DNA of 64,000 bases from Bacteroidota bacterium (GTDB lineage Bacteria > Bacteroidota > Bacteroidia > UKL13-3): the NCBI GenBank assembly GCA_947491825.1, contig CANLLM010000002.1, positions 10,503 to 74,502 of the forward strand, given 5' to 3'. The notes under the pieces are model-generated. The model had not been told where the DNA came from and made no database searches. It saw only the letters and a list, made by a program, of their open reading frames with translations. The stretch's first letter is position 1, and every line of letters starts with the position of its first letter. Shown here one piece after another: positions 12,033 to 20,296 of this stretch. The position numbers and the translations under genes are program-made.

Positions 12033-12051
12033 ACATCACCATTGTAAATTT

Positions 12052-12078
12052 AAAAAAGCTACACAGTGTGGCTTTTTT
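12052..12078 (+). terminator. Rho-independent terminator after serS
   Basis: Stem agctac/gtggct (one G-U pair) with a short loop, preceded by an A-run and followed by TTTTTT (12073-12078). Confidence 0.6.
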
Positions 12079-12157
12079 AATATTGATTTTATGGCGTTTT
12101 TATAAACACAATAACAAGAAGTTAATGGTGTACACTTAACTAAGTATACTTGCATAA

Positions 12158-12730
12158 ATGCTTAATGATAGAGAGTTAATTAAAGCTATTTTAGGTGGTA
12201 ACGAAGCCGCTTTTAAAACGCTTTATACCATATATAAAGATATGGTATATAACACCGCTTTAAGTATACTGCAACAACAAATAGAAGCAGAAGATATTAG
12301 CCAAGATGTATTTATAGAAATACATAAATCAATCGGGAAATTTAGACACAATTCGTCCTTAAAAACCTGGATATACAGAATAACCATAACCAAATGTTAC
12401 GATTATTTAAAGAGACAAAAAACTAAGAAGAGGTTTGCCCAACTTACCTCCCTGTTTAATAGTGAAAACAAGTTGGTTTATGATAAACCACATTTCGAAC
12501 ACCCAGGTGTTACGCTTGAAAACAAAGAACATGCAAGTGTATTGTTTTTGGCAATTAGCAAGCTCCCTATTAAACAACAAACTGCATTTACTTTAAGTAA
12601 AATTGAACATTTATCTTATAAAGAAATAGCAGAAATAATGAACACCACAACCTCAAGTGTAGAATCGCTAATTTTTAGGGCAACTAGAAATTTAAGAGTC
12701 ACGTTATCTGAATATTATAAAAACGAATAA
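12158..12730 (+). CDS. ECF-type RNA polymerase sigma-70 family factor
   Basis: Region 2 'DISQDVFIEIHKSIGKFRHNSSLKTWIYRITITKCYDYLKR' and region 4 HTH 'SYKEIAEIMNTTTSSVESLIFRATRNLR'. Size is 190 aa. Confidence 0.9.
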   Translation: MLNDRELIKAILGGNEAAFKTLYTIYKDMVYNTALSILQQQIEAEDISQDVFIEIHKSIGKFRHNSSLKTWIYRITITKCYDYLKRQKTKKRFAQLTSLFNSENKLVYDKPHFEHPGVTLENKEHASVLFLAISKLPIKQQTAFTLSKIEHLSYKEIAEIMNTTTSSVESLIFRATRNLRVTLSEYYKNE

Positions 12731-12774
12731 ACAGTTAACGCAAGTATTGATGCTGTTAATCTTCTAAATAATTG

Positions 12775-13089
12775 ATGGGAACTTTAAATAATAAGTTAAT
12801 TGACGAAACTGTAAATAGCATACACAGTATTCAACGAGCGGAAATGTCTCCCTTTTTGTTCAATAAGATTATTAATCGAATTAAAGCGGGAATACCAGAG
12901 CCAATTTATTATACGGGAGCATGGTTTTTGCGCATCGCTGTTACGGGAGTAGTTATTATTTCGCTAAATGCAATAACCATTTGGTCTGTAACAAAACAAC
13001 CCCAAAAACAGGTAAATGAACAAATGGAATTGCATAAGATAGCACAAGAATATTTTGGCAACGATAATGTAACAAGTTACTTCTATTAA
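12775..13089 (+). CDS. Putative anti-sigma factor (single-pass membrane protein)
   Basis: Small protein directly downstream of the ECF sigma gene with one TM helix (WFLRIAVTGVVIISLNAITIW). The call is by position and architecture only. The ATG at 12775 follows the TTG at 12772. Confidence 0.5.
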   Translation: MGTLNNKLIDETVNSIHSIQRAEMSPFLFNKIINRIKAGIPEPIYYTGAWFLRIAVTGVVIISLNAITIWSVTKQPQKQVNEQMELHKIAQEYFGNDNVTSYFY

Positions 13090-13098
13090 TTCATAATC

Positions 13099-13638
13099 AT
13101 GAGAATAAACAAAACTAAACTCTTGCTTACTTTGGTTATTTTATTATCTATACTAAATGTAAGCACTATTGCTAGCATTTGGAGATATATCGACTTCAGT
13201 ACGTTATCTATAATAACAACACCTGCCCCAATGGGTGGGCCGAAAGATTTTATCATTAGTAAACTTGATTTAAACGAAGAACAACAGAAAGTTTTTGAAG
13301 AACTTCGTCAGGAGCATTTTCAAGAAATGAAAAACCTACAAGAGAATATACGTGTAGAAAAAGATGCCATGTACGACTTGTTAAAAAGTGACCAACCAGA
13401 TACAACTGCTTCATACCAACACATAGCTCGCATAATGAAAAATGAAGAGAAACTTGAGCACATCACATTTAATCATTTTAGGAAAGTGAGGGCTATCTGT
13501 AATGCCGAGCAACAACAACATTTTGATGTAATCATAGATGAGGTAATGCGCATGCTAATGAGACCACCGCGTCCGCTAGCACCAGGTAAAATGCACCAAA
13601 ATAACCACGCCAAAGATCAACATTACCACTTACCATAA
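13099..13638 (+). CDS. Spy/CpxP/ZraP-like periplasmic protein (heavy-metal-sensor-like)
   Basis: N-terminal signal-anchor (LLLTLVILLSILNVSTIASIW), a helical E/Q/K-rich body with the LTxxQ-like motif 'LNEEQQKVFEELRQEH', and a His-rich tail 'HQNNHAKDQHYHLP'. Confidence 0.6.
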   Translation: MRINKTKLLLTLVILLSILNVSTIASIWRYIDFSTLSIITTPAPMGGPKDFIISKLDLNEEQQKVFEELRQEHFQEMKNLQENIRVEKDAMYDLLKSDQPDTTASYQHIARIMKNEEKLEHITFNHFRKVRAICNAEQQQHFDVIIDEVMRMLMRPPRPLAPGKMHQNNHAKDQHYHLP

Positions 13639-13653
13639 AACCACTTAACTGAT

Positions 13654-13902
13654 ATGAAGTTATTAAAGAATATCGCCCTAAGCGATACAGGATTTGTATT
13701 TAATCCCGGTACTGGAGATTCTTTTTCGGTAAACCCAATAGGATTAAGTATCCTAAAGGATTTACAAGAAGGCAAATCTGAAGAAGCTATTAGAAACAGG
13801 GTAATTGAAGATTACCAAACTGATAAAGAAACCATAGAAAAAGATTTATATGATTTTTTGAAAATGATTGAGCAATTTAACCTTACTGATTACCATGAGT
13901 AA
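13654..13902 (+). CDS. PqqD-family (RRE-fold) small protein, 82 aa, C-terminal ...DYHE
   Basis: The pattern 'GFVFNPGTGDSFSVNPIGLSILKDLQEGKSEEAIRNRVIEDYQTDKETIEKDLYDFLKMIEQFNL' follows the PqqD consensus. That consensus is a beta-strand, 'tg..f.lN..g..iw..l.g.s..ei', then 'dv..fl..l...gl'. Confidence 0.8.
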   Translation: MKLLKNIALSDTGFVFNPGTGDSFSVNPIGLSILKDLQEGKSEEAIRNRVIEDYQTDKETIEKDLYDFLKMIEQFNLTDYHE

Positions 13903-14941
13903 GCGTAAGATTACTGTTGCTGTATCAGGTTTAAATAACATTGACAGTCCTGGACCCGGCATACCCGTTATTCGTGCACTCAAAGACAGTGAACTTTTTG
14001 AAATTCGAATTATCGGTTTATCGTACGACACAATGGAGCCGGGAATTTATATGCACGATTTGGTAGATAAAACTTACCAAATACCGTTGCCTTCAGCTGG
14101 TCAACAAAGTTTACTCATGCGTTTATCATACATACATCAGCAAGAGAAAATTGATGTGCTAATCCCCAACTTTGATGCAGAATTATTTAACTTCATAAAA
14201 CTGCAAGACACCTTAAAAAAAATGGGTATTCATACCTTTTTGCCCACACTAGAGCAATTTGAAGAAAGGCAGAAATGGGCATTAAATACTTTTGGAGAAA
14301 AGTATGGAATTAAGGTGCCAAGAAGTAAACAAATTAATAGTACAGCCGAAATACATGCATTAACACATGAGTTTGGATACCCATTTGTAGTTAAAGGCAA
14401 ATTTTATGATGCAACAGTTGCTTATTCACCGGATCAAGCCATGGCGGCATTTAACAAGATTAGTGGCAAATGGGGCTTACCTATTATAATACAACAATAT
14501 ACGCCCGGAACAGAAGTTAACCTTACAGGAATTGGCGATGGAAAAGGCAATTTAATAGGTGCAGTACCTATGCGTAAAACATATATTACCGATAAAGGCA
14601 AAGCATGGGCTGGTATAGCATTAGAGGACGAAACGCTCATGAATATTGCTCGCAACATGGTAAAAGGAAACAATTGGAGAGGGGGATTTGAACTGGAAAT
14701 GATAAAAACGGACAAGCGAGAATATTATTTGATTGAGATTAATCCGAGGTTTCCTGCATGGGTATATTTAGCAGTAGGTACAGGGCAGAATCATCCCGAA
14801 GCACTGGTTAGGTTGGCACTTGGCGAAGAAGTCAAGCCTTATGAAAGCTATGAGTCAGGTAAAATGTTTATTCGTTACTCATACGATAAAATTGTTGAAC
14901 TCAAAGAATTTGAAACTATTTCTACCCTAGGAGAATTATAA
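13895..14941 (+). CDS. ATP-grasp family ligase
   Basis: ATP-grasp motifs 'YPFVVKGKF' (Lys strand), 'IIIQQYTPGTEVN' (hinge) and 'YLIEINPRFPAW' (Mg/ATP E-x-N). The ATG at 13895 (MSKRKITVAVSG...) overlaps the PqqD-like stop by 8 nt (ATGAGTAA). The ORF track starts at 13868. Confidence 0.85.
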   Translation: MSKRKITVAVSGLNNIDSPGPGIPVIRALKDSELFEIRIIGLSYDTMEPGIYMHDLVDKTYQIPLPSAGQQSLLMRLSYIHQQEKIDVLIPNFDAELFNFIKLQDTLKKMGIHTFLPTLEQFEERQKWALNTFGEKYGIKVPRSKQINSTAEIHALTHEFGYPFVVKGKFYDATVAYSPDQAMAAFNKISGKWGLPIIIQQYTPGTEVNLTGIGDGKGNLIGAVPMRKTYITDKGKAWAGIALEDETLMNIARNMVKGNNWRGGFELEMIKTDKREYYLIEINPRFPAWVYLAVGTGQNHPEALVRLALGEEVKPYESYESGKMFIRYSYDKIVELKEFETISTLGEL

Positions 14942-14960
14942 CCTATAATTAAAATTACAG

Positions 14961-16337
14961 ATGAAAAAGCAAATATACGAGCGCCCCTTAATACACAGAA
15001 TCAATACTGGTATGATGAATAAATTCGGTACCAAAACAGAATATGCGCCCGTTAGTCATATTGATGGTTTGGCAGTAAAAGATTTGATAAAGGAATACGG
15101 ATCTCCCCTATTTGTGCTGAGTGAGGATACCATTAGAAACACATATAGAGAAGCTGTTCGTGCGTTTAAAACAAGATATCCCAAAATACAATTTGCATGG
15201 AGTTATAAAACCAATTACATCAATGCTGTGTGTAATATATTCCATCAAGAAGGATCATGGGCAGAAGTTGTTTCGGGATTTGAATACCAAAAAGCGATTA
15301 ATAACGGAGTACCAGGACCAAAAATTATTTTTAATGGCCCTGATAAAAGTGATGATGATTTAAGACGTGCGATTACCAACAACTCCCCAATCCATATAGA
15401 CCATCTTGACGAGCTATATCGTTTAACAGAATTAGCCGAAGAAATGAACAAACGGCCGAATGTTGCTATTCGCGTTAATATGGATACGGGTATTTATCCA
15501 ATGTGGGATCGTTTTGGATTTAACTACGAAAACGGACAAGCATGGGATGCTATCAATAAAATAATTTTAGGTAATCGCCTTGAGTTGATTGGTGTTCATT
15601 GTCACATCGGAACTTTCATGTTATCACCTCAAGCGTATGCTACAGCAGCTTATAAATTATCTGATTTAGCATTGGGGATAAAAAAGAAATTTGGCAAAAC
15701 AATTCACTATATCGATATGGGTGGAGGATTCGCATCTAAAAATACATTGAAAGGATCTTTCCTTCCAGGTGCCGACACCACTCCTACCATTGATCAATTT
15801 GCGGAATCTATCACCACTGCACTATTAAATGCCGGATTCACCGAAAAAGACCTACCACTTCTGGTTTTAGAAACAGGCAGGGCACTAATTGATGAAGCTG
15901 GTTATTTATTGGGAAGCGTAATTGCAAACAAACGTTTAAGTGATGGAAGAAGAGCCACCATTATGGATTTTGGCGTAAATATATTGTTTACCTCTTTTTG
16001 GTACGACCATAAAATTAGTCCTGCACAAGAGTTTAGTTCTTACACAGAAGATACGGTAATGTATGGCCCATTGTGTATGAATATTGATGTAGTTAGAAGC
16101 CATATTACCTTACCCCCATTAAAAAAAGAAGACCATGTAGTTGTTCATACAGTAGGGGCCTACAACATGACGCAATGGATGCAGTTTATTGCCATGCGAC
16201 CTGCTGTAGTATTAATTGGCACAGATGGCAAATCGCACTTAATTCGGAATAAAGAAACCATAGAAAATATTGAATCGAGTGAAGTAATGCCAGATTTTTT
16301 AAAAAAGCATGCACTTGCATCTGGTATTTTAAAATAA
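14961..16337 (+). CDS. Fold-type III PLP-dependent decarboxylase (Orn/DAP/Arg decarboxylase family)
   Basis: PLP-Lys context 'FAWSYKTNY', 'GVHCHIGT' (HxHxG[ST]), phosphate-binding 'IDMGGGFA', 'LETGRALI' (EPGR-like), 'YGPLCMNIDV' and C-terminal 'VGAYNMT'. All catalytic signatures appear intact. Confidence 0.85.
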   Translation: MKKQIYERPLIHRINTGMMNKFGTKTEYAPVSHIDGLAVKDLIKEYGSPLFVLSEDTIRNTYREAVRAFKTRYPKIQFAWSYKTNYINAVCNIFHQEGSWAEVVSGFEYQKAINNGVPGPKIIFNGPDKSDDDLRRAITNNSPIHIDHLDELYRLTELAEEMNKRPNVAIRVNMDTGIYPMWDRFGFNYENGQAWDAINKIILGNRLELIGVHCHIGTFMLSPQAYATAAYKLSDLALGIKKKFGKTIHYIDMGGGFASKNTLKGSFLPGADTTPTIDQFAESITTALLNAGFTEKDLPLLVLETGRALIDEAGYLLGSVIANKRLSDGRRATIMDFGVNILFTSFWYDHKISPAQEFSSYTEDTVMYGPLCMNIDVVRSHITLPPLKKEDHVVVHTVGAYNMTQWMQFIAMRPAVVLIGTDGKSHLIRNKETIENIESSEVMPDFLKKHALASGILK

Positions 16338-16343
16338 CAACCA

Positions 16344-18533
16344 TTGAAAAGCCAAATTCAATTATTCGGAAAAGGATTTATAAATAGTTATTCGCAATTA
16401 TTTTTCGCTGATAATAAAACATTTGCGTGGTTGCTATTGCTATCTTCCTTTGTTAATCCCGTTATGGGAATTAGCGGGGCGTTAGCAACCATTTCTAGTT
16501 TGGTTTTTTCATATTGGATCGGATTAAATAGGACACACATTGGCCACGGTGTATATAGTTATAATGCATTAATGATTGGCCTCGTTTTAGGGGCGCAATA
16601 CCAAATAACACCATCATATCTACTCCTGTTGTTGGTTGCTGCAATTCTTAGTGTAATTATTGCTGTTTGGTTCAATACAATTTTGGCCAAATACCAATTA
16701 CCTTCATTAAGTTTATCTTTTTTATTCAGTCTTTGGTTAATAACTATTGGGCTGCGCACATATAACAACATCACACTTAACGAAAACGGCATCTACAGGT
16801 ACAACGATTGGTATTTGATAGGTGGTGATCATTTAGTAAACTTCATGCACAAGATGGAGGAAATTCAAATTCCTGAAGTGATTGATGTATATTTAAAATC
16901 ACTCTCCGCAGTATTCTTTCAATACAACATCATTGCAGGCTTTCTTATTTTAGTTGGATTAATCATTTGGTCGAGAATAGCATTTATACTTTCCATCATT
17001 GGATTTAGTATGGGATACCTATTTTATTTTGGCTTGTCGGGAGAATTCTCTCAACTTTACTACAGTTACATCGGATTTAACTTCATCATGACAGCAATAG
17101 CATTAGGAGGTTTTTATCTTATACCTTCACGTGCCTCATTTATTTTAGCTATCATATCAATGCCCATTATTGGCATATTGATAAGTGGTTTAAACGGGAT
17201 TCTAATTATATATCAACTTCCATTGTATTCGTTACCATTTGTTATAACAGTCTTAATTGTACTGATGTTGTTAAGTCAAAGAACTTACCTGCACAGATTA
17301 ATTCCTGTAACCTTTCAGCATTTTTCGCCCGAAAAAAACAAGTACAACTATTCCAATAATGCCATACGATTCAAAAACAGTAAATGGGTTAATATTCAAT
17401 TACCATTTTTCGGAGAGTGGTTTGTTTCCCAGGGATATCATGGCAAAATAACACATAAAGAAAATTGGAGTGAGGCATTAGATTTTGTAGTAGTTGATGA
17501 AACTAAGCACACTTTTAAATCACTTGGTACATCTGTAACAGACTTTTACTGCTATAATTTACCACTACTAGCGCCTGCAGATGGGTATGTAGTAGAAATT
17601 GCTGATGGCATAGAAGATAACAAGATTGGAGATGTTGATTTGATAGAAAACTGGGGAAATACAATTGTAATTAAACATGCTGATGGCATATATAGTAAAC
17701 TATCACACCTAAAAGCGAATTCTATACTGGTAAACATAAATGATTATGTTAGGGCAGGACAAATATTGGCAAGCTGCGGAAGCTCCGGCAGATCGCCAGA
17801 ACCACATTTGCATTTCCAAATACAAAAAACTCCTTTTATTGGATCTGCAACTATAAGTTATCAGATCAACCATTTTATAAGTAGGGTAAACGAAAAATAT
17901 CAATTTCACGAAAACGAAATACCACAAGAAGGGGCTCAAATTCATCAACCAATAAAAACTCCGTTATTAAGTAGCGCTTTTCATTTTACACTGGGACAAA
18001 TAATCACATTCGAAACAGATATTAATTCAGGAAATAAACATAGCATAACTTGGGAATGCATGGTTGATTCATGGAATAAAACCTATTTGTATTGCCGTCA
18101 AACTAAAGCTTATGCCTACTTTATAAATAATGGTACAACATTTTATTTCACAAGTTACCATGGTTCAAAAAAATCCTTATTATTTGATTTCTATTTAGCG
18201 GCATACAAAATCCTCTTGGGCTATTATCCTGATCTAACAATAAAAGATAGCATTGATATTGGGTTATTTAAACACCCTATCTCTTCGTGGTTTCAAGACA
18301 TTATTGCTCCATTTTATCTATTTAAAAAGGTAAGTTATCAAGTAAATTTTAAACAAATAGACGATATGATTGCACCTACATACATAGTAATAGAAAGTAA
18401 AATTGAAGCATACAACTTTAACTCAAAAACCAAAGAGCGTAACTATAAATTAGTAATACAAGATGGAAAACTCATGCAAATTGTTATTAACCCAAACCAT
18501 AAATCAGCACTAACAATAACATGCACAAACTAA
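16344..18533 (+). CDS. Fusion protein: urea-transporter (UT) family channel domain + M23 (LytM-type) metallopeptidase domain + ~190-aa unassigned C-terminal domain
   Basis: The N-terminal ~320 aa is polytopic and carries both UT half-signatures ('SYNALMIGLVLG' and 'GFNFIMTAIALGGFY'). The M23 domain shows 'ITHKENWSEALDF', 'NWGNTIVIKHADGIYSKLSHL' and the HxH motif 'EPHLHFQIQ'. The TTG start at 16344 is the only in-frame start after the upstream stop. Confidence 0.75.
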   Translation: MKSQIQLFGKGFINSYSQLFFADNKTFAWLLLLSSFVNPVMGISGALATISSLVFSYWIGLNRTHIGHGVYSYNALMIGLVLGAQYQITPSYLLLLLVAAILSVIIAVWFNTILAKYQLPSLSLSFLFSLWLITIGLRTYNNITLNENGIYRYNDWYLIGGDHLVNFMHKMEEIQIPEVIDVYLKSLSAVFFQYNIIAGFLILVGLIIWSRIAFILSIIGFSMGYLFYFGLSGEFSQLYYSYIGFNFIMTAIALGGFYLIPSRASFILAIISMPIIGILISGLNGILIIYQLPLYSLPFVITVLIVLMLLSQRTYLHRLIPVTFQHFSPEKNKYNYSNNAIRFKNSKWVNIQLPFFGEWFVSQGYHGKITHKENWSEALDFVVVDETKHTFKSLGTSVTDFYCYNLPLLAPADGYVVEIADGIEDNKIGDVDLIENWGNTIVIKHADGIYSKLSHLKANSILVNINDYVRAGQILASCGSSGRSPEPHLHFQIQKTPFIGSATISYQINHFISRVNEKYQFHENEIPQEGAQIHQPIKTPLLSSAFHFTLGQIITFETDINSGNKHSITWECMVDSWNKTYLYCRQTKAYAYFINNGTTFYFTSYHGSKKSLLFDFYLAAYKILLGYYPDLTIKDSIDIGLFKHPISSWFQDIIAPFYLFKKVSYQVNFKQIDDMIAPTYIVIESKIEAYNFNSKTKERNYKLVIQDGKLMQIVINPNHKSALTITCTN

Positions 18534-19681
18534 CTACACTTTTTATACTATGTTTTGCGTTTGCTGGTGCCAACTCACAAGTGTATTATATATCAGGTGC
18601 TGATAGCCTTCTTAAGGAGGAATACAATAAAGGTAGTTGGAAAAATGTAATGCAGATTACAGATAGTATTCACAAAATAGGCATGGGCTACCATGAGGCA
18701 TTTGAAATGGCTGCAGAAGCCGCATACATTTTAAACAAACCATTTAAACAACATACCTACTTACAACATGCATTACAAGATTTTCCAACGGATAGTGCAG
18801 TTTTATTGAAATTAGCTTATTGCTTTTGGACAACAAAACAATATAGTCATGGTAATAAAATACAATATAAATTATTAAAGAAAAGATTGCTAAATGAACA
18901 GAATAAGGTTAAAATCAATGTTGTAAACTTTGATATTGGAAGTAAAATTAGCAGCAATACCAGCCTGTATAATAATTTAAACTTTGTTTCTGTTGGTACA
19001 ACTTTCCCCATAAAGTTTATACTTACTTACCATGGGATAACTTATCTTAGACAAAAAAGCTTCTATGGAGATATAGCGCAAATACAATATTACCTGAATA
19101 GCTCAATAGCACTAAGAAAAGGATGGAAGATTAGTGGAATTCTGCATTTAGCAGAATATAATCTAACCAACTATCCTGCAGATTTAATAGGTAATCAAAT
19201 TTTATCAGGCGATCAATACATATTGGGTTTAGGAACAAGTAAACTTTACAAAAATTGTTTGTTTGGAGTCGATGTCATAAAATCTAACTTAAACTATAAA
19301 GATCAACTTCAAATAGTCTCGGGAATAATATACTACCCATTAAACAATACAAAACTTATACTTAATATAGATGCTAACTACCTTACCGAAAAATCACACA
19401 CCATTGCTTCTTATAGACTTACTTACTCACCAATTAAATCATTAAATGTAAGTTTAAGTTATTTACAAGCCAATACACGTAACTTTACCGAGCAGAACGC
19501 ATTTTTGGTTCATAATTCTTTTGATATTACCCGTAATAAATATGCTTTATCCGTAACACAACATATTTCAAAAAACATACGTATAATCGGAATATTTCAA
19601 TTAGAAAATAAAATAGAAACAATAAGTAACACCAATTATCAATACACAATACTAGGTTTAGGAGTAAAAAATATATTTTAA
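18521..19681 (+). CDS. Secreted protein: N-terminal helical/TPR-like region + C-terminal beta-barrel-like region (putative outer-membrane protein)
   Basis: Signal peptide MHKLTTLFILCFAFAGANSQ. A helical segment covers roughly residues 20-115. Alternating hydrophobic beta-strand pattern follows, ending '...GLGVKNIF' with an aromatic terminus. The start overlaps the upstream gene by 13 nt. Confidence 0.55.
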   Translation: MHKLTTLFILCFAFAGANSQVYYISGADSLLKEEYNKGSWKNVMQITDSIHKIGMGYHEAFEMAAEAAYILNKPFKQHTYLQHALQDFPTDSAVLLKLAYCFWTTKQYSHGNKIQYKLLKKRLLNEQNKVKINVVNFDIGSKISSNTSLYNNLNFVSVGTTFPIKFILTYHGITYLRQKSFYGDIAQIQYYLNSSIALRKGWKISGILHLAEYNLTNYPADLIGNQILSGDQYILGLGTSKLYKNCLFGVDVIKSNLNYKDQLQIVSGIIYYPLNNTKLILNIDANYLTEKSHTIASYRLTYSPIKSLNVSLSYLQANTRNFTEQNAFLVHNSFDITRNKYALSVTQHISKNIRIIGIFQLENKIETISNTNYQYTILGLGVKNIF

Positions 19682-19690
19682 GAAACACAT

Positions 19691-20296
19691 ATGAAAATTT
19701 TAACTGTAATATTATTAACAATAGGCATAAGTCCACTATTTGCTCAAGAAACAAGCCTCCAAACCGCATTCGAGAAAAGTTATCCATCAGAGAAAAGTGC
19801 GAATTATAACGAAGCTTCCCAAGCATTAATGCAGGTATACAGTGAGAAGTCATATGAATTAAATTTACGTTTGGGGTATTTAAAATACATGGCGGGTGCA
19901 TATAATGATGCCATTATTTTTTATAAAAAAGCAATACAAATAATGCCTTATGCCATTGAACCGCGATTAGGTTATGTATACCCAGCAGCGGCACTAAATA
20001 AATGGGATGATGTGATTATACAATATCAAGCAATACTAAAAATTGACCCGAATAATAGCAGTGTTAATTATAAGTTAGGTATTATATACTACAACCGTAA
20101 AAAATATACACAAGCATATAATTTGTTCGAAAAGGTAGTGAATCTTTACCCTTTTGATTATGATGGATTGTTGATGTATGCATGGAATAATTATCGCATG
20201 GGCAAATTACCTCAAGCTAAATTATTATTTAAAAAGGTGTTGTTAATTTCCCCTAATGATAAATCAGCATTAGAAGGATTAGCCCTCATAAAATAA
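19691..20296 (+). CDS. Secreted TPR-repeat protein
   Basis: Signal peptide MKILTVILLTIGISPLFAQ. Several 34-aa TPR-like repeats are visible (…AYNDAIIFYKKAIQIMPYAIEP…, …YTQAYNLFEKVVNLYPFDYDG…, …LPQAKLLFKKVLLISPNDKSA…). Confidence 0.75.
   Translation: MKILTVILLTIGISPLFAQETSLQTAFEKSYPSEKSANYNEASQALMQVYSEKSYELNLRLGYLKYMAGAYNDAIIFYKKAIQIMPYAIEPRLGYVYPAAALNKWDDVIIQYQAILKIDPNNSSVNYKLGIIYYNRKKYTQAYNLFEKVVNLYPFDYDGLLMYAWNNYRMGKLPQAKLLFKKVLLISPNDKSALEGLALIK

Follow-up and report, generated by a model that had tools for sequence, protein, structure and literature searches.

Positions 13,654 to 20,296 of the window analyzed here, a 64,000-nucleotide stretch of contig CANLLM010000002.1 from the Bacteroidota bacterium assembly GCA_947491825.1, hold six tightly packed genes on one strand: a PqqD-like protein of the RRE type, an ATP-grasp ligase, a fold-type III pyridoxal phosphate (PLP) decarboxylase, a urea-transporter-fold (UT) channel fused to an M23 metallopeptidase (UT::M23), and two exported proteins. 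These six genes are one real, widespread and co-conserved unit, in which known folds are set in an arrangement without a described counterpart. We tentatively read the unit as a biosynthesis-plus-export module of a new kind, spread across phyla. The genes, and the parts of the fusion protein, are as follows.

13654..13902, plus strand: gene 1, PqqD-like RRE protein of 82 amino acids (aa; Pfam PqqD), a predicted peptide- or protein-binding adaptor for the ligase
13895..14941, plus strand: gene 2, ATP-grasp carboxylate-amine ligase of 348 aa, ATPgrasp_Ter / PRK12767-like family (Pfam and NCBIfam)
14961..16337, plus strand: gene 3, fold-type III PLP decarboxylase of 458 aa, DAPDC/FslC/SbnH/BtrK/MccE clade
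16344..18533, plus strand: gene 4, UT::M23 fusion of 729 aa (Pfam UT and Peptidase_M23)
16344..17297, plus strand: urea-transporter-fold channel domain of the fusion, residues 1-318 (Pfam UT, AlphaFold, Foldseek)
17298..17408, plus strand: basic linker of the fusion, residues 319-355, with a conserved SPEKNxY...R, predicted cytoplasmic
17409..17843, plus strand: M23 (LytM-type) zinc metallopeptidase of the fusion, residues ~356-500, predicted active and cytoplasmic
17844..18533, plus strand: C-terminal beta-rich domain of the fusion, residues 501-729, a fold family without assignment, with a confident AlphaFold model
18521..19681, plus strand: gene 5, exported protein of 386 aa with a signal peptide, a TPR N-part and a beta-rich C-part, a probable outer-membrane barrel
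19691..20296, plus strand: gene 6, exported TPR protein of 201 aa (TPR Pfam matches), a probable periplasmic adaptor

Two independently gathered sets of loci carry the evidence for the unit. The first was taken from a scan of one genome per species seeded on the fusion, which has relatives in at least 533 species; the best 80 of these loci were used, all of them labelled as metagenome-assembled genomes (MAGs), with Bacteroidota lineages named in most titles. The second set comprised 80 loci on metagenome contigs, found with an ATP-grasp motif as seed, and adjacency was counted in those loci that had enough flanking DNA. Across the fusion-seeded loci, the single-strand order PqqD–ligase–decarboxylase–fusion–(barrel)–TPR recurs, with the PqqD–ATP-grasp–decarboxylase trio directly upstream of UT::M23 in 57/61 loci and a TPR gene within 3 kb downstream of the fusion in 58/63. 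In the ATP-grasp-seeded set, 45 of 51 loci have the fusion as the gene directly after the decarboxylase, and a family hidden Markov model finds a PqqD gene immediately before the ATP-grasp gene in 70 of 71. Clustering of all open reading frames (ORFs) at the loci returned exactly these six families, an AraC-type regulator being the sole other recurrent neighbor (25 loci). With more than 140 independent loci sharing this order, it lies far beyond chance. The probability that unrelated genes simply happen to sit side by side here, or that the ORFs are artefacts, is negligible, this view being refuted by the same-strand order across phyla, by natural gene fusions, and by overlapping starts and stops. 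The first-pass annotation of this DNA had claimed a six-gene unit from one sequence while allowing that the genes might not be co-conserved outside this genome; the neighborhood analysis decisively establishes that they are.

Judged by source names, the hosts belong to at least six phyla, namely Bacteroidota, Campylobacterota (Nautiliaceae), Verrucomicrobiota (Prosthecobacter), Marinimicrobia, Desulfobacterales and Acidobacteriota (Bryobacteraceae), and the GC content of the ATP-grasp-seeded loci ranges from 0.24 to 0.73. Isolates also carry the cluster: Labilibaculum antarcticum, with the full set in a complete genome, and Prosthecobacter fluviatilis. A search of 1.8 billion cluster representatives yielded natural fusions of PqqD with ATP-grasp (P0219) and of ATP-grasp with the decarboxylase (P0155). 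The first three genes form an obligate trio, sometimes fused to each other.

Individual loci depart from this layout. In a Bryobacteraceae locus (L156:12440-20070), the genes after the trio encode a cytochrome P450, a TylF-like O-methyltransferase and a GNAT protein (Acetyltransf_3), and then a cysteinyl-tRNA synthetase and a Cys/Met PLP enzyme, with no UT::M23; the arrangement resembles a version of the pathway with tailoring and self-resistance functions. In Prosthecobacter (L160:16923-18419), a second protein consisting of a half UT domain and TPR repeats is encoded two genes downstream of UT::M23. An IF-2B-family gene (eIF2B/MtnA-like) stands between the decarboxylase and UT::M23 genes in two loci with Bacteroidales or Bacteroidetes MAG labels (L031:9010-9915 and L053:9033-9950), and a 565-aa ORF, multicopper-oxidase-like as judged from sequence alone, stands between the PqqD and ATP-grasp genes in another (L035:3759-5456).

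Within the window, the junctions between the six genes, checked on the sequence, measure -8, +19, +6, -13 and +9 nt in order; genes 1 and 2 overlap by ATGAGTAA, and genes 4 and 5 by 13 nt. The 348-aa ligase was taken from the ATG at 13895, the mechanical ORF list opening at a TTG at 13868. The start codon of the 729-aa fusion gene is a TTG at 16344. Public gene calls on an identical contig place it 40 codons downstream, which gives 689 aa and skips window positions 16344-16463; the TTG at 16344 is preferred because residues 13-40 of the fusion are conserved among homologues. All six ORFs, their spacings and the motifs quoted in the first-pass annotation (FVVKGKF, LIEINPRFPAW, SYKTN, HCHIGT, MGGGF, ETGR, VGAYN and HLHFQ) are present as described, and profile searches bear out its domain calls of PqqD, ATP-grasp, PLP decarboxylase, UT plus M23, and TPR. 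Its statement that no gap could hold a precursor gene agrees with the largest intergenic space in the operon, 19 nt. None of the six proteins reaches a curated equivalog cut-off in Pfam or NCBIfam, and none matches a PADLOC defense-system model. A promoter scan carried no information (48 sites against 44 expected), and no riboswitch or other RNA ligand clue was found in this region of the window or in six diverse loci.

The decarboxylase matches Orn_Arg_deC_N and Orn_DAP_Arg_deC in Pfam, and its PDB ranking is headed by FslC/FigC (7kh2, 1e-54), followed by diaminopimelate (DAP) decarboxylase, DAPDC (1e-41), and BtrK (5e-27). The fold-III catalytic set is kept, as SYKTN, HCHIGT, MGGGF, ETGR, GPLCMNID and VGAYN align to FslC/DAPDC positions and correspond to the PLP lysine, the stacking histidine, the Gly-rich phosphate loop, ExGR, the cross-dimer cysteine and GAY. 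Compared with the Methanocaldococcus jannaschii DAPDC (1twi), the Arg of NDxxRPxxY has become Thr (NILFTSFWY) and the Glu of CES has become Met (CMNID); from DAPDC structures we take these two residues to be the binders of the distal amino-acid end of DAP. FslC carries the same two replacements. At the positions aligned to H357 and R387, the citryl-binding residues of FigC (PMC7857480), the window enzyme has Ile and Gln. Its scores fall under the cut-offs of both the lysA equivalog TIGR01048 (212.3 bits against 297.9) and the FslC model NF041039 (227.7 bits against 500), and as the substrate-recognition residues are replaced as well, the enzyme is neither LysA nor FslC. The doubt raised at first pass over a plain lysA was thus well placed. 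The residues point to a new specificity and a new pocket, probably a less polar one. No paralogue of the decarboxylase is encoded within the window.

FigC belongs to one clade with SbnH, AcsE, MccE, BtrK, DAPDC and D-ODC, in which FslC/FigC, SbnH and AcsE take side-chain-acylated amino acids as substrates, and MccE of the microcin C pathway works on an amino-acid-like group that an intermediate derived from a peptide carries (PMC7857480). For several members of this clade the substrate is an alpha-amino-acid moiety tethered by the side chain, with the DAP and D-ornithine/lysine decarboxylases as exceptions. As the mechanism of fold-III decarboxylases requires a free alpha-amine and a free alpha-carboxylate, the product of the ligase must bear an amino acid attached via its side chain.

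This kinship also suits a small-molecule pathway with no peptide in it, which we consider rather unlikely. Here the ligase would join a small acid to ornithine, lysine or diaminobutyrate (DAB) to give a metallophore- or polyamine-like amide, the decarboxylase would trim it as FslC and SbnH do, PqqD would be merely a structural subunit of the ligase, and M23 would either activate the product or be inert towards it. FslC/FigC is the nearest characterized relative of the decarboxylase, the siderophore enzymes SbnH and AcsE fall in the same clade, and some neighboring genes hint at metals: a Metal_resist/LTXXQ gene here, AraC regulators resembling the heavy-metal-associated (HMA) fold in 25 loci, and the multicopper-oxidase-like gene of L035. 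The citryl-binding residues of FigC are not conserved, however, and the clusters contain no NRPS-independent siderophore (NIS) synthetase, TonB-dependent receptor or usual exporter. PqqD-type domains are, moreover, peptide binders, and a pathway without a peptide does not explain why PqqD and the ligase are paired almost everywhere or why the M23 active site is invariant.

The ligase matches ATPgrasp_Ter and ATP-grasp_3 in Pfam and a PRK12767-like model in NCBIfam. Its family profile retrieves carbamoyl phosphate synthetase (CPS), 2pn1 (an uncharacterized protein in the PDB) and biotin carboxylase at E-values of 1e-10 to 1e-5, with Ddl at ~5e-3; this search returned no close solved relative, and Mur ligases went unmatched in the NCBIfam and PDB profile searches. 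With 18.7 bits against a rimK_fam cut-off of 143.4, the enzyme is not of the RimK/LysX type. Orthologues are 58-86% identical within Bacteroidota and 36-48% across phyla, and the family is large, with tandem double-domain forms among its 225 representatives at E<1e-30. These double ATP-grasp relatives are ~710 aa long (P0132, P0140, P0148 and others). A third search, with a profile of distant ATP-grasp relatives, gave almost only orthologues, so that the distant contexts come from the metagenome scan.

The 82-aa protein scores 41.2 bits against Pfam PqqD (cut-off 23.4, E=2e-10), and its nearest solved relative is the lasso leader-binding RRE TbiB1 (E=2.7e-7); the NCBIfam lasso PqqD models stay under their cut-offs (31.9 against 70 and 17.4 against 80). 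Its first 70 residues are highly conserved and its tail is variable or absent, the last residue among homologues being E, N, D, K, A, Q, L, F, S, G or I, and no invariant Asp, Glu, Lys, Ser or Cys was found in the family across phyla. A covalent carrier resembling LysW or an acyl carrier protein (ACP) was considered for this protein and rejected, since the tail and C-terminus vary, no attachment residue is invariant, and the 'GEL' end of the ligase is not terminal in other phyla. We read the protein from these sequences as a putative non-covalent binder attached to the ligase rather than a carrier of the LysW or ACP type.

One of the three models in the first-pass annotation was a carrier-tethered small-molecule pathway, and its combination of ATP-grasp, tethered-substrate decarboxylase and release peptidase fits best; its assignment of the 82-aa protein as the covalent carrier does not stand, given the variable tail and the resemblance to TbiB1. 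In butirosin biosynthesis, BtrI/BtrJ/BtrK (with BtrG) likewise pair an ATP-grasp enzyme with a DAPDC-clade decarboxylase and have a small partner protein encoded alongside; the butirosin decarboxylase acts on a side-chain-tethered amino acid and a hydrolytic release comes later, as would also be the case for the window cluster. Unlike in that pathway, where BtrI is a phosphopantetheinyl carrier, the window protein has a PqqD/RRE fold in place of an ACP and no invariant Ser or Cys, the decarboxylase is closer to FslC than to BtrK, and the cluster adds a UT channel, M23, TPR and an outer-membrane barrel. In LysW/LysX systems, an ATP-grasp enzyme loads the substrate onto a small protein, on which it is modified before a metallopeptidase sets it free. 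The window cluster would share this logic of ATP-grasp, small protein and metallopeptidase by analogy, but LysW needs a conserved C-terminal Glu, whereas the C-terminus of the window family varies, and the ligase is of another type. Moreover, the LysW scheme would stop a fold-III decarboxylase, because the alpha-amine of the substrate is blocked in LysW systems. MccD/MccE of microcin C provide a precedent for decarboxylation of an appended group on a peptide; the group there is appended by a transferase dependent on S-adenosylmethionine, not by an ATP-grasp enzyme, and that system has its own precursor and a different exporter. In total, BtrI/J/K, LysW/LysX, lasso B1/B2/C, FslA/FslC and MccD/MccE share logic with the cluster, and for each of them the cluster fails at least one defining feature that was tested. 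Literature searches returned no description of this gene set and no paper combining these families, in keeping with the earlier statement that no characterized system matches; the exception is the UT plus M23 domain pair, which a 2026 survey lists without function or context (PMC12998343).

The relation to TbiB1 raises a further alternative, also among the models proposed at first pass: a classical pathway for a ribosomally synthesized peptide modified after translation (RiPP), whose precursor is encoded elsewhere. In such a pathway the RRE would bind a leader, the ATP-grasp enzyme and the decarboxylase would modify the core, M23 would act as leader peptidase, and the mature peptide would be exported. 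The fusion of RRE and ATP-grasp in P0219 speaks for it together with the relation to lasso B1 proteins, as does the Bryobacteraceae variant, whose P450, O-methyltransferase and GNAT genes are what a tailoring cluster would hold. A peptidase fused to a membrane protein also recalls leader-cleaving exporters. The resemblance to lasso systems lies in the roles of RRE, peptidase and ATP-dependent amide-forming enzyme. It ends with the protease, M23 here as opposed to a transglutaminase-like enzyme, with the ATP-grasp in place of an Asn-synthetase-like cyclase, with the missing precursor gene, and with the added decarboxylase and envelope components; neither the lasso B2 transglutaminase-like protease nor the C Asn-synthetase-like cyclase is among the conserved neighbors.

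The precursor search itself was negative. Clustering of small ORFs (12-75 aa) at up to 700 nt from the cluster in 80 loci turned up nothing but antisense artefacts within AraC, although very short or hypervariable ORFs could have escaped this search. A precursor gene is a near-constant part of RiPP clusters, whereas among the more than 140 loci, from many phyla, no conserved small ORF was found in or beside the cluster in any lineage. The enzymes are also unusually conserved for secondary metabolism (the decarboxylase is 60-90% identical within Bacteroidota), a peptide would not fit through a UT-type pore, and ordinary peptide residues lack the free alpha-amine and alpha-carboxylate that the decarboxylase needs. 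We therefore regard a classical RiPP pathway as unlikely.

The channel half of the fusion protein matches Pfam UT at 179 bits (E=1.5e-52). The AlphaFold model of the whole protein is confident (pLDDT 88.6, pTM 0.80), and in a whole-model Foldseek search, which was dominated by the UT and M23 domains, the N-terminal 310 residues matched urea channels, with dvUT (3k3f) at a template-modelling (TM) score of 0.83. The protein thus resembles urea transporters (dvUT, UT-A/UT-B) in its ten-helix fold and in having the LPxxTxPF signature in both repeats. It differs from them in that the pore Thr is Ser in each repeat (LPSLSLSF and LPLYSLPF), in its 400-residue C-terminal M23 and beta part, and in its score against the urea-transporter (yut) NCBIfam equivalog, which at 108.1 is below the cut-off of 274.6.

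The peptidase half matches Peptidase_M23 at 57 bits (E=2e-15), with Foldseek TM scores of 0.7-0.77 to LytM/M23 structures. Its residues H371, D380, H455, H488 and H490, which make up the His-Asp zinc-ligand pair, the catalytic His and the HxH motif, are invariant in 66 Bacteroidota and 28 cross-phylum sequences. Degenerate LytM factors would not show such invariance of the five metal or catalytic residues across distant phyla, and the domain is predicted to be active. The His-Asp spacing is x8, where x3 is common, and a 20-residue insert follows the Asp. The C-terminal domain (501-729) is present in homologues of all phyla with weak conservation and has no Pfam match and no sequence relative in the PDB.

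The linker that follows the last UT helix has a net charge of +3.9, compared with -1.5 for the central loop; within it, the cross-phylum sequences all keep P329 and nearly all keep E330 and R342. The termini of UT proteins are intracellular in known structures. From this charge bias and these termini, both the M23 domain and the C-terminal beta domain of 230 residues would be cytoplasmic, beside the soluble enzymes. Such a layout is analogous to that of peptidase-containing ABC transporters (PCATs), in which a cytoplasmic peptidase is fused to the membrane protein of product exit; here, unlike in PCATs, the membrane part would be a urea-channel fold without an ATPase, and the peptidase a zinc enzyme of the M23 type, where PCATs have a Cys C39 peptidase.

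This predicted topology bears on the third first-pass model, editing of peptidoglycan stem peptides. In an envelope-remodelling pathway of this kind, a periplasmic M23 would cut peptidoglycan while precursors of the stem peptide would be edited by the enzymes in the cytoplasm. Typical M23 domains hydrolyse peptidoglycan or regulate such hydrolases, the ligase and the decarboxylase have relatives that work in peptidoglycan and DAP chemistry, TPR and outer-membrane proteins would suit an envelope complex, and this genome has an ECF/Spy-like stress module upstream. The UT fold, however, puts both termini on one side, and with the basic linker this places M23 inside the cell by prediction; the ligase resembles Ddl only distantly and Mur ligases not at all, the DAP-binding residues of the decarboxylase are lost, and the ECF/Spy-like neighbors are not conserved. 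Peptidoglycan remodelling is accordingly disfavored, and we consider it very unlikely.

The two exported proteins complete the set. The gene 5 product has no Pfam match. Its family, found in 68 loci, has a profile with a TPR region at the N-terminus followed by an all-beta C-terminal part, and the window protein carries a signal peptide as well as a hydrophobic beta-signal at the C-terminus. Its beta part aligns with a 283-aa barrel-like family that occupies the same place in Campylobacterota-type loci at an HHalign probability of 89.7%, and these features suggest a probable outer-membrane barrel. The gene 6 product has multiple TPR Pfam matches and a signal-peptide-like N-terminus, which make it a probable periplasmic adaptor. 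PgaA, BcsC and AlgK/AlgE offer a comparison, with an outer-membrane protein that combines an N-terminal TPR region with a C-terminal beta part and a separate periplasmic TPR protein. Unlike in those systems, gene 5 is much smaller, no synthase or glycosyltransferase is present, and neither protein has a sequence match to those families.

In the biosynthesis-plus-export module that we propose, the PqqD-like RRE would present a segment of a peptide or protein to the ATP-grasp ligase. The ligase would activate a carboxylate as an acyl-phosphate and couple it to a free diamino acid (of the ornithine, lysine, DAB or DAP type) at the side-chain amine, so that the alpha-amino and alpha-carboxyl groups of the diamino acid would stay free. 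The PLP decarboxylase would then strip the alpha-carboxylate and leave a terminal primary amine on an amide tether. M23, at the cytoplasmic mouth of the UT pore, would cut an amide bond, either releasing a small amine or amide product or removing the recognition segment. Finally, the product would cross the inner membrane through or alongside the UT pore, and the periplasmic TPR protein together with the TPR-plus-barrel protein would take it across the outer layers. We infer all five of these steps; the data themselves show that the genes are linked and in places fused, that the active sites are intact, to which clade the decarboxylase belongs and which topology is predicted. In its most specific form, which is possible but doubtful, the proposal would be a new trans-envelope system in many diderm phyla, in which a UT pore bearing a cytoplasmic zinc peptidase receives an amine product built on a protein or peptide scaffold by an RRE-guided ligase and a tethered-substrate decarboxylase, without a dedicated precursor gene; from its release at the mouth of the pore, the product would pass on to the TPR adaptor and the outer-membrane barrel.

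Several points weigh against this proposal. The fusion–barrel–TPR set occurs without the trio alongside in four genomes (L006, L013, L050 and L062), and the trio occurs without UT::M23 in some lineages (L086, L130 and L156). As each half is found without the other alongside in these few cases, the cluster consists of two sub-modules that usually travel together, and the two halves can work apart. The UT pore is narrow in solved structures, so that only a very small product could pass, and for so small a molecule a dedicated outer-membrane barrel seems superfluous. The barrel itself is modelled with low confidence (pLDDT 45.6, from 9 close sequences), with ~14 beta strands predicted in residues 131-384 of gene 5. 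The cytoplasmic placement of M23 is a prediction from homology and the positive-inside rule. The closest solved relatives of the ligase, CPS and biotin carboxylase, although weakly matched, use bicarbonate, so that carboxylation instead of acyl-amine ligation is possible. Lastly, no conserved small ORF was found in or beside the cluster, and inspection by eye of 500 nt upstream in 20 divergent loci showed none in common, searches that very short or hypervariable ORFs could escape.

If the proposed module is real, environmental Bacteroidota, Campylobacterota, Verrucomicrobiota, Marinimicrobia and other phyla would share a widespread pathway whose product is so far unseen. It would provide the first role of a urea-transporter fold beyond small-solute conduction, the first M23 peptidase working inside the cell, an RRE operating without a dedicated precursor gene, and a new substrate class for the DAPDC/FslC/BtrK decarboxylase clade. 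More broadly, it would be a new coupling of biosynthesis to secretion and a new function for the UT and M23 folds; even an ordinary product, such as a diamine, would still leave the export route new. As the cluster is present in the cultured Labilibaculum antarcticum and Prosthecobacter fluviatilis, the question is directly testable.

Upstream of gene 1, three further genes were assigned through Pfam.

12158-12730, plus strand: ECF (extracytoplasmic function) sigma factor
12772-13089, plus strand: putative anti-sigma factor
13099-13638, plus strand: LTXXQ/Metal_resist (Spy/CpxP-like) protein

These genes are co-directional with the cluster, with gaps of 41, 9 and 15 nt. A strong terminator-like hairpin at 12050-12080 (14-bp stem and T-run), located after serS, probably marks the upstream end of the transcription unit, and no terminator is predicted before gene 1 (13638 to 13654). 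Because of this hairpin, the shared direction and the lack of a predicted terminator before gene 1, the transcript here may start at 12158. A functional link between the cluster and an ECF/Spy-like envelope module had been suggested from this adjacency, which turns out to be limited to the closest relatives (L001, L149 and partly L005). The ECF, anti-sigma and Spy-like genes are lineage-specific and lie outside the conserved module. In other lineages the regulators are instead of the AraC, LytS/LytTR or OmpR type. In 25 Bacteroidota loci, an AraC-type regulator is encoded directly upstream of the PqqD gene (L002:6729-7340 and 24 others); its N-domain is the part that resembles the HMA fold, with a single Cys. 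An AraC-type gene (HTH_18) occupies the same position in Labilibaculum antarcticum (L083:8974-9570).

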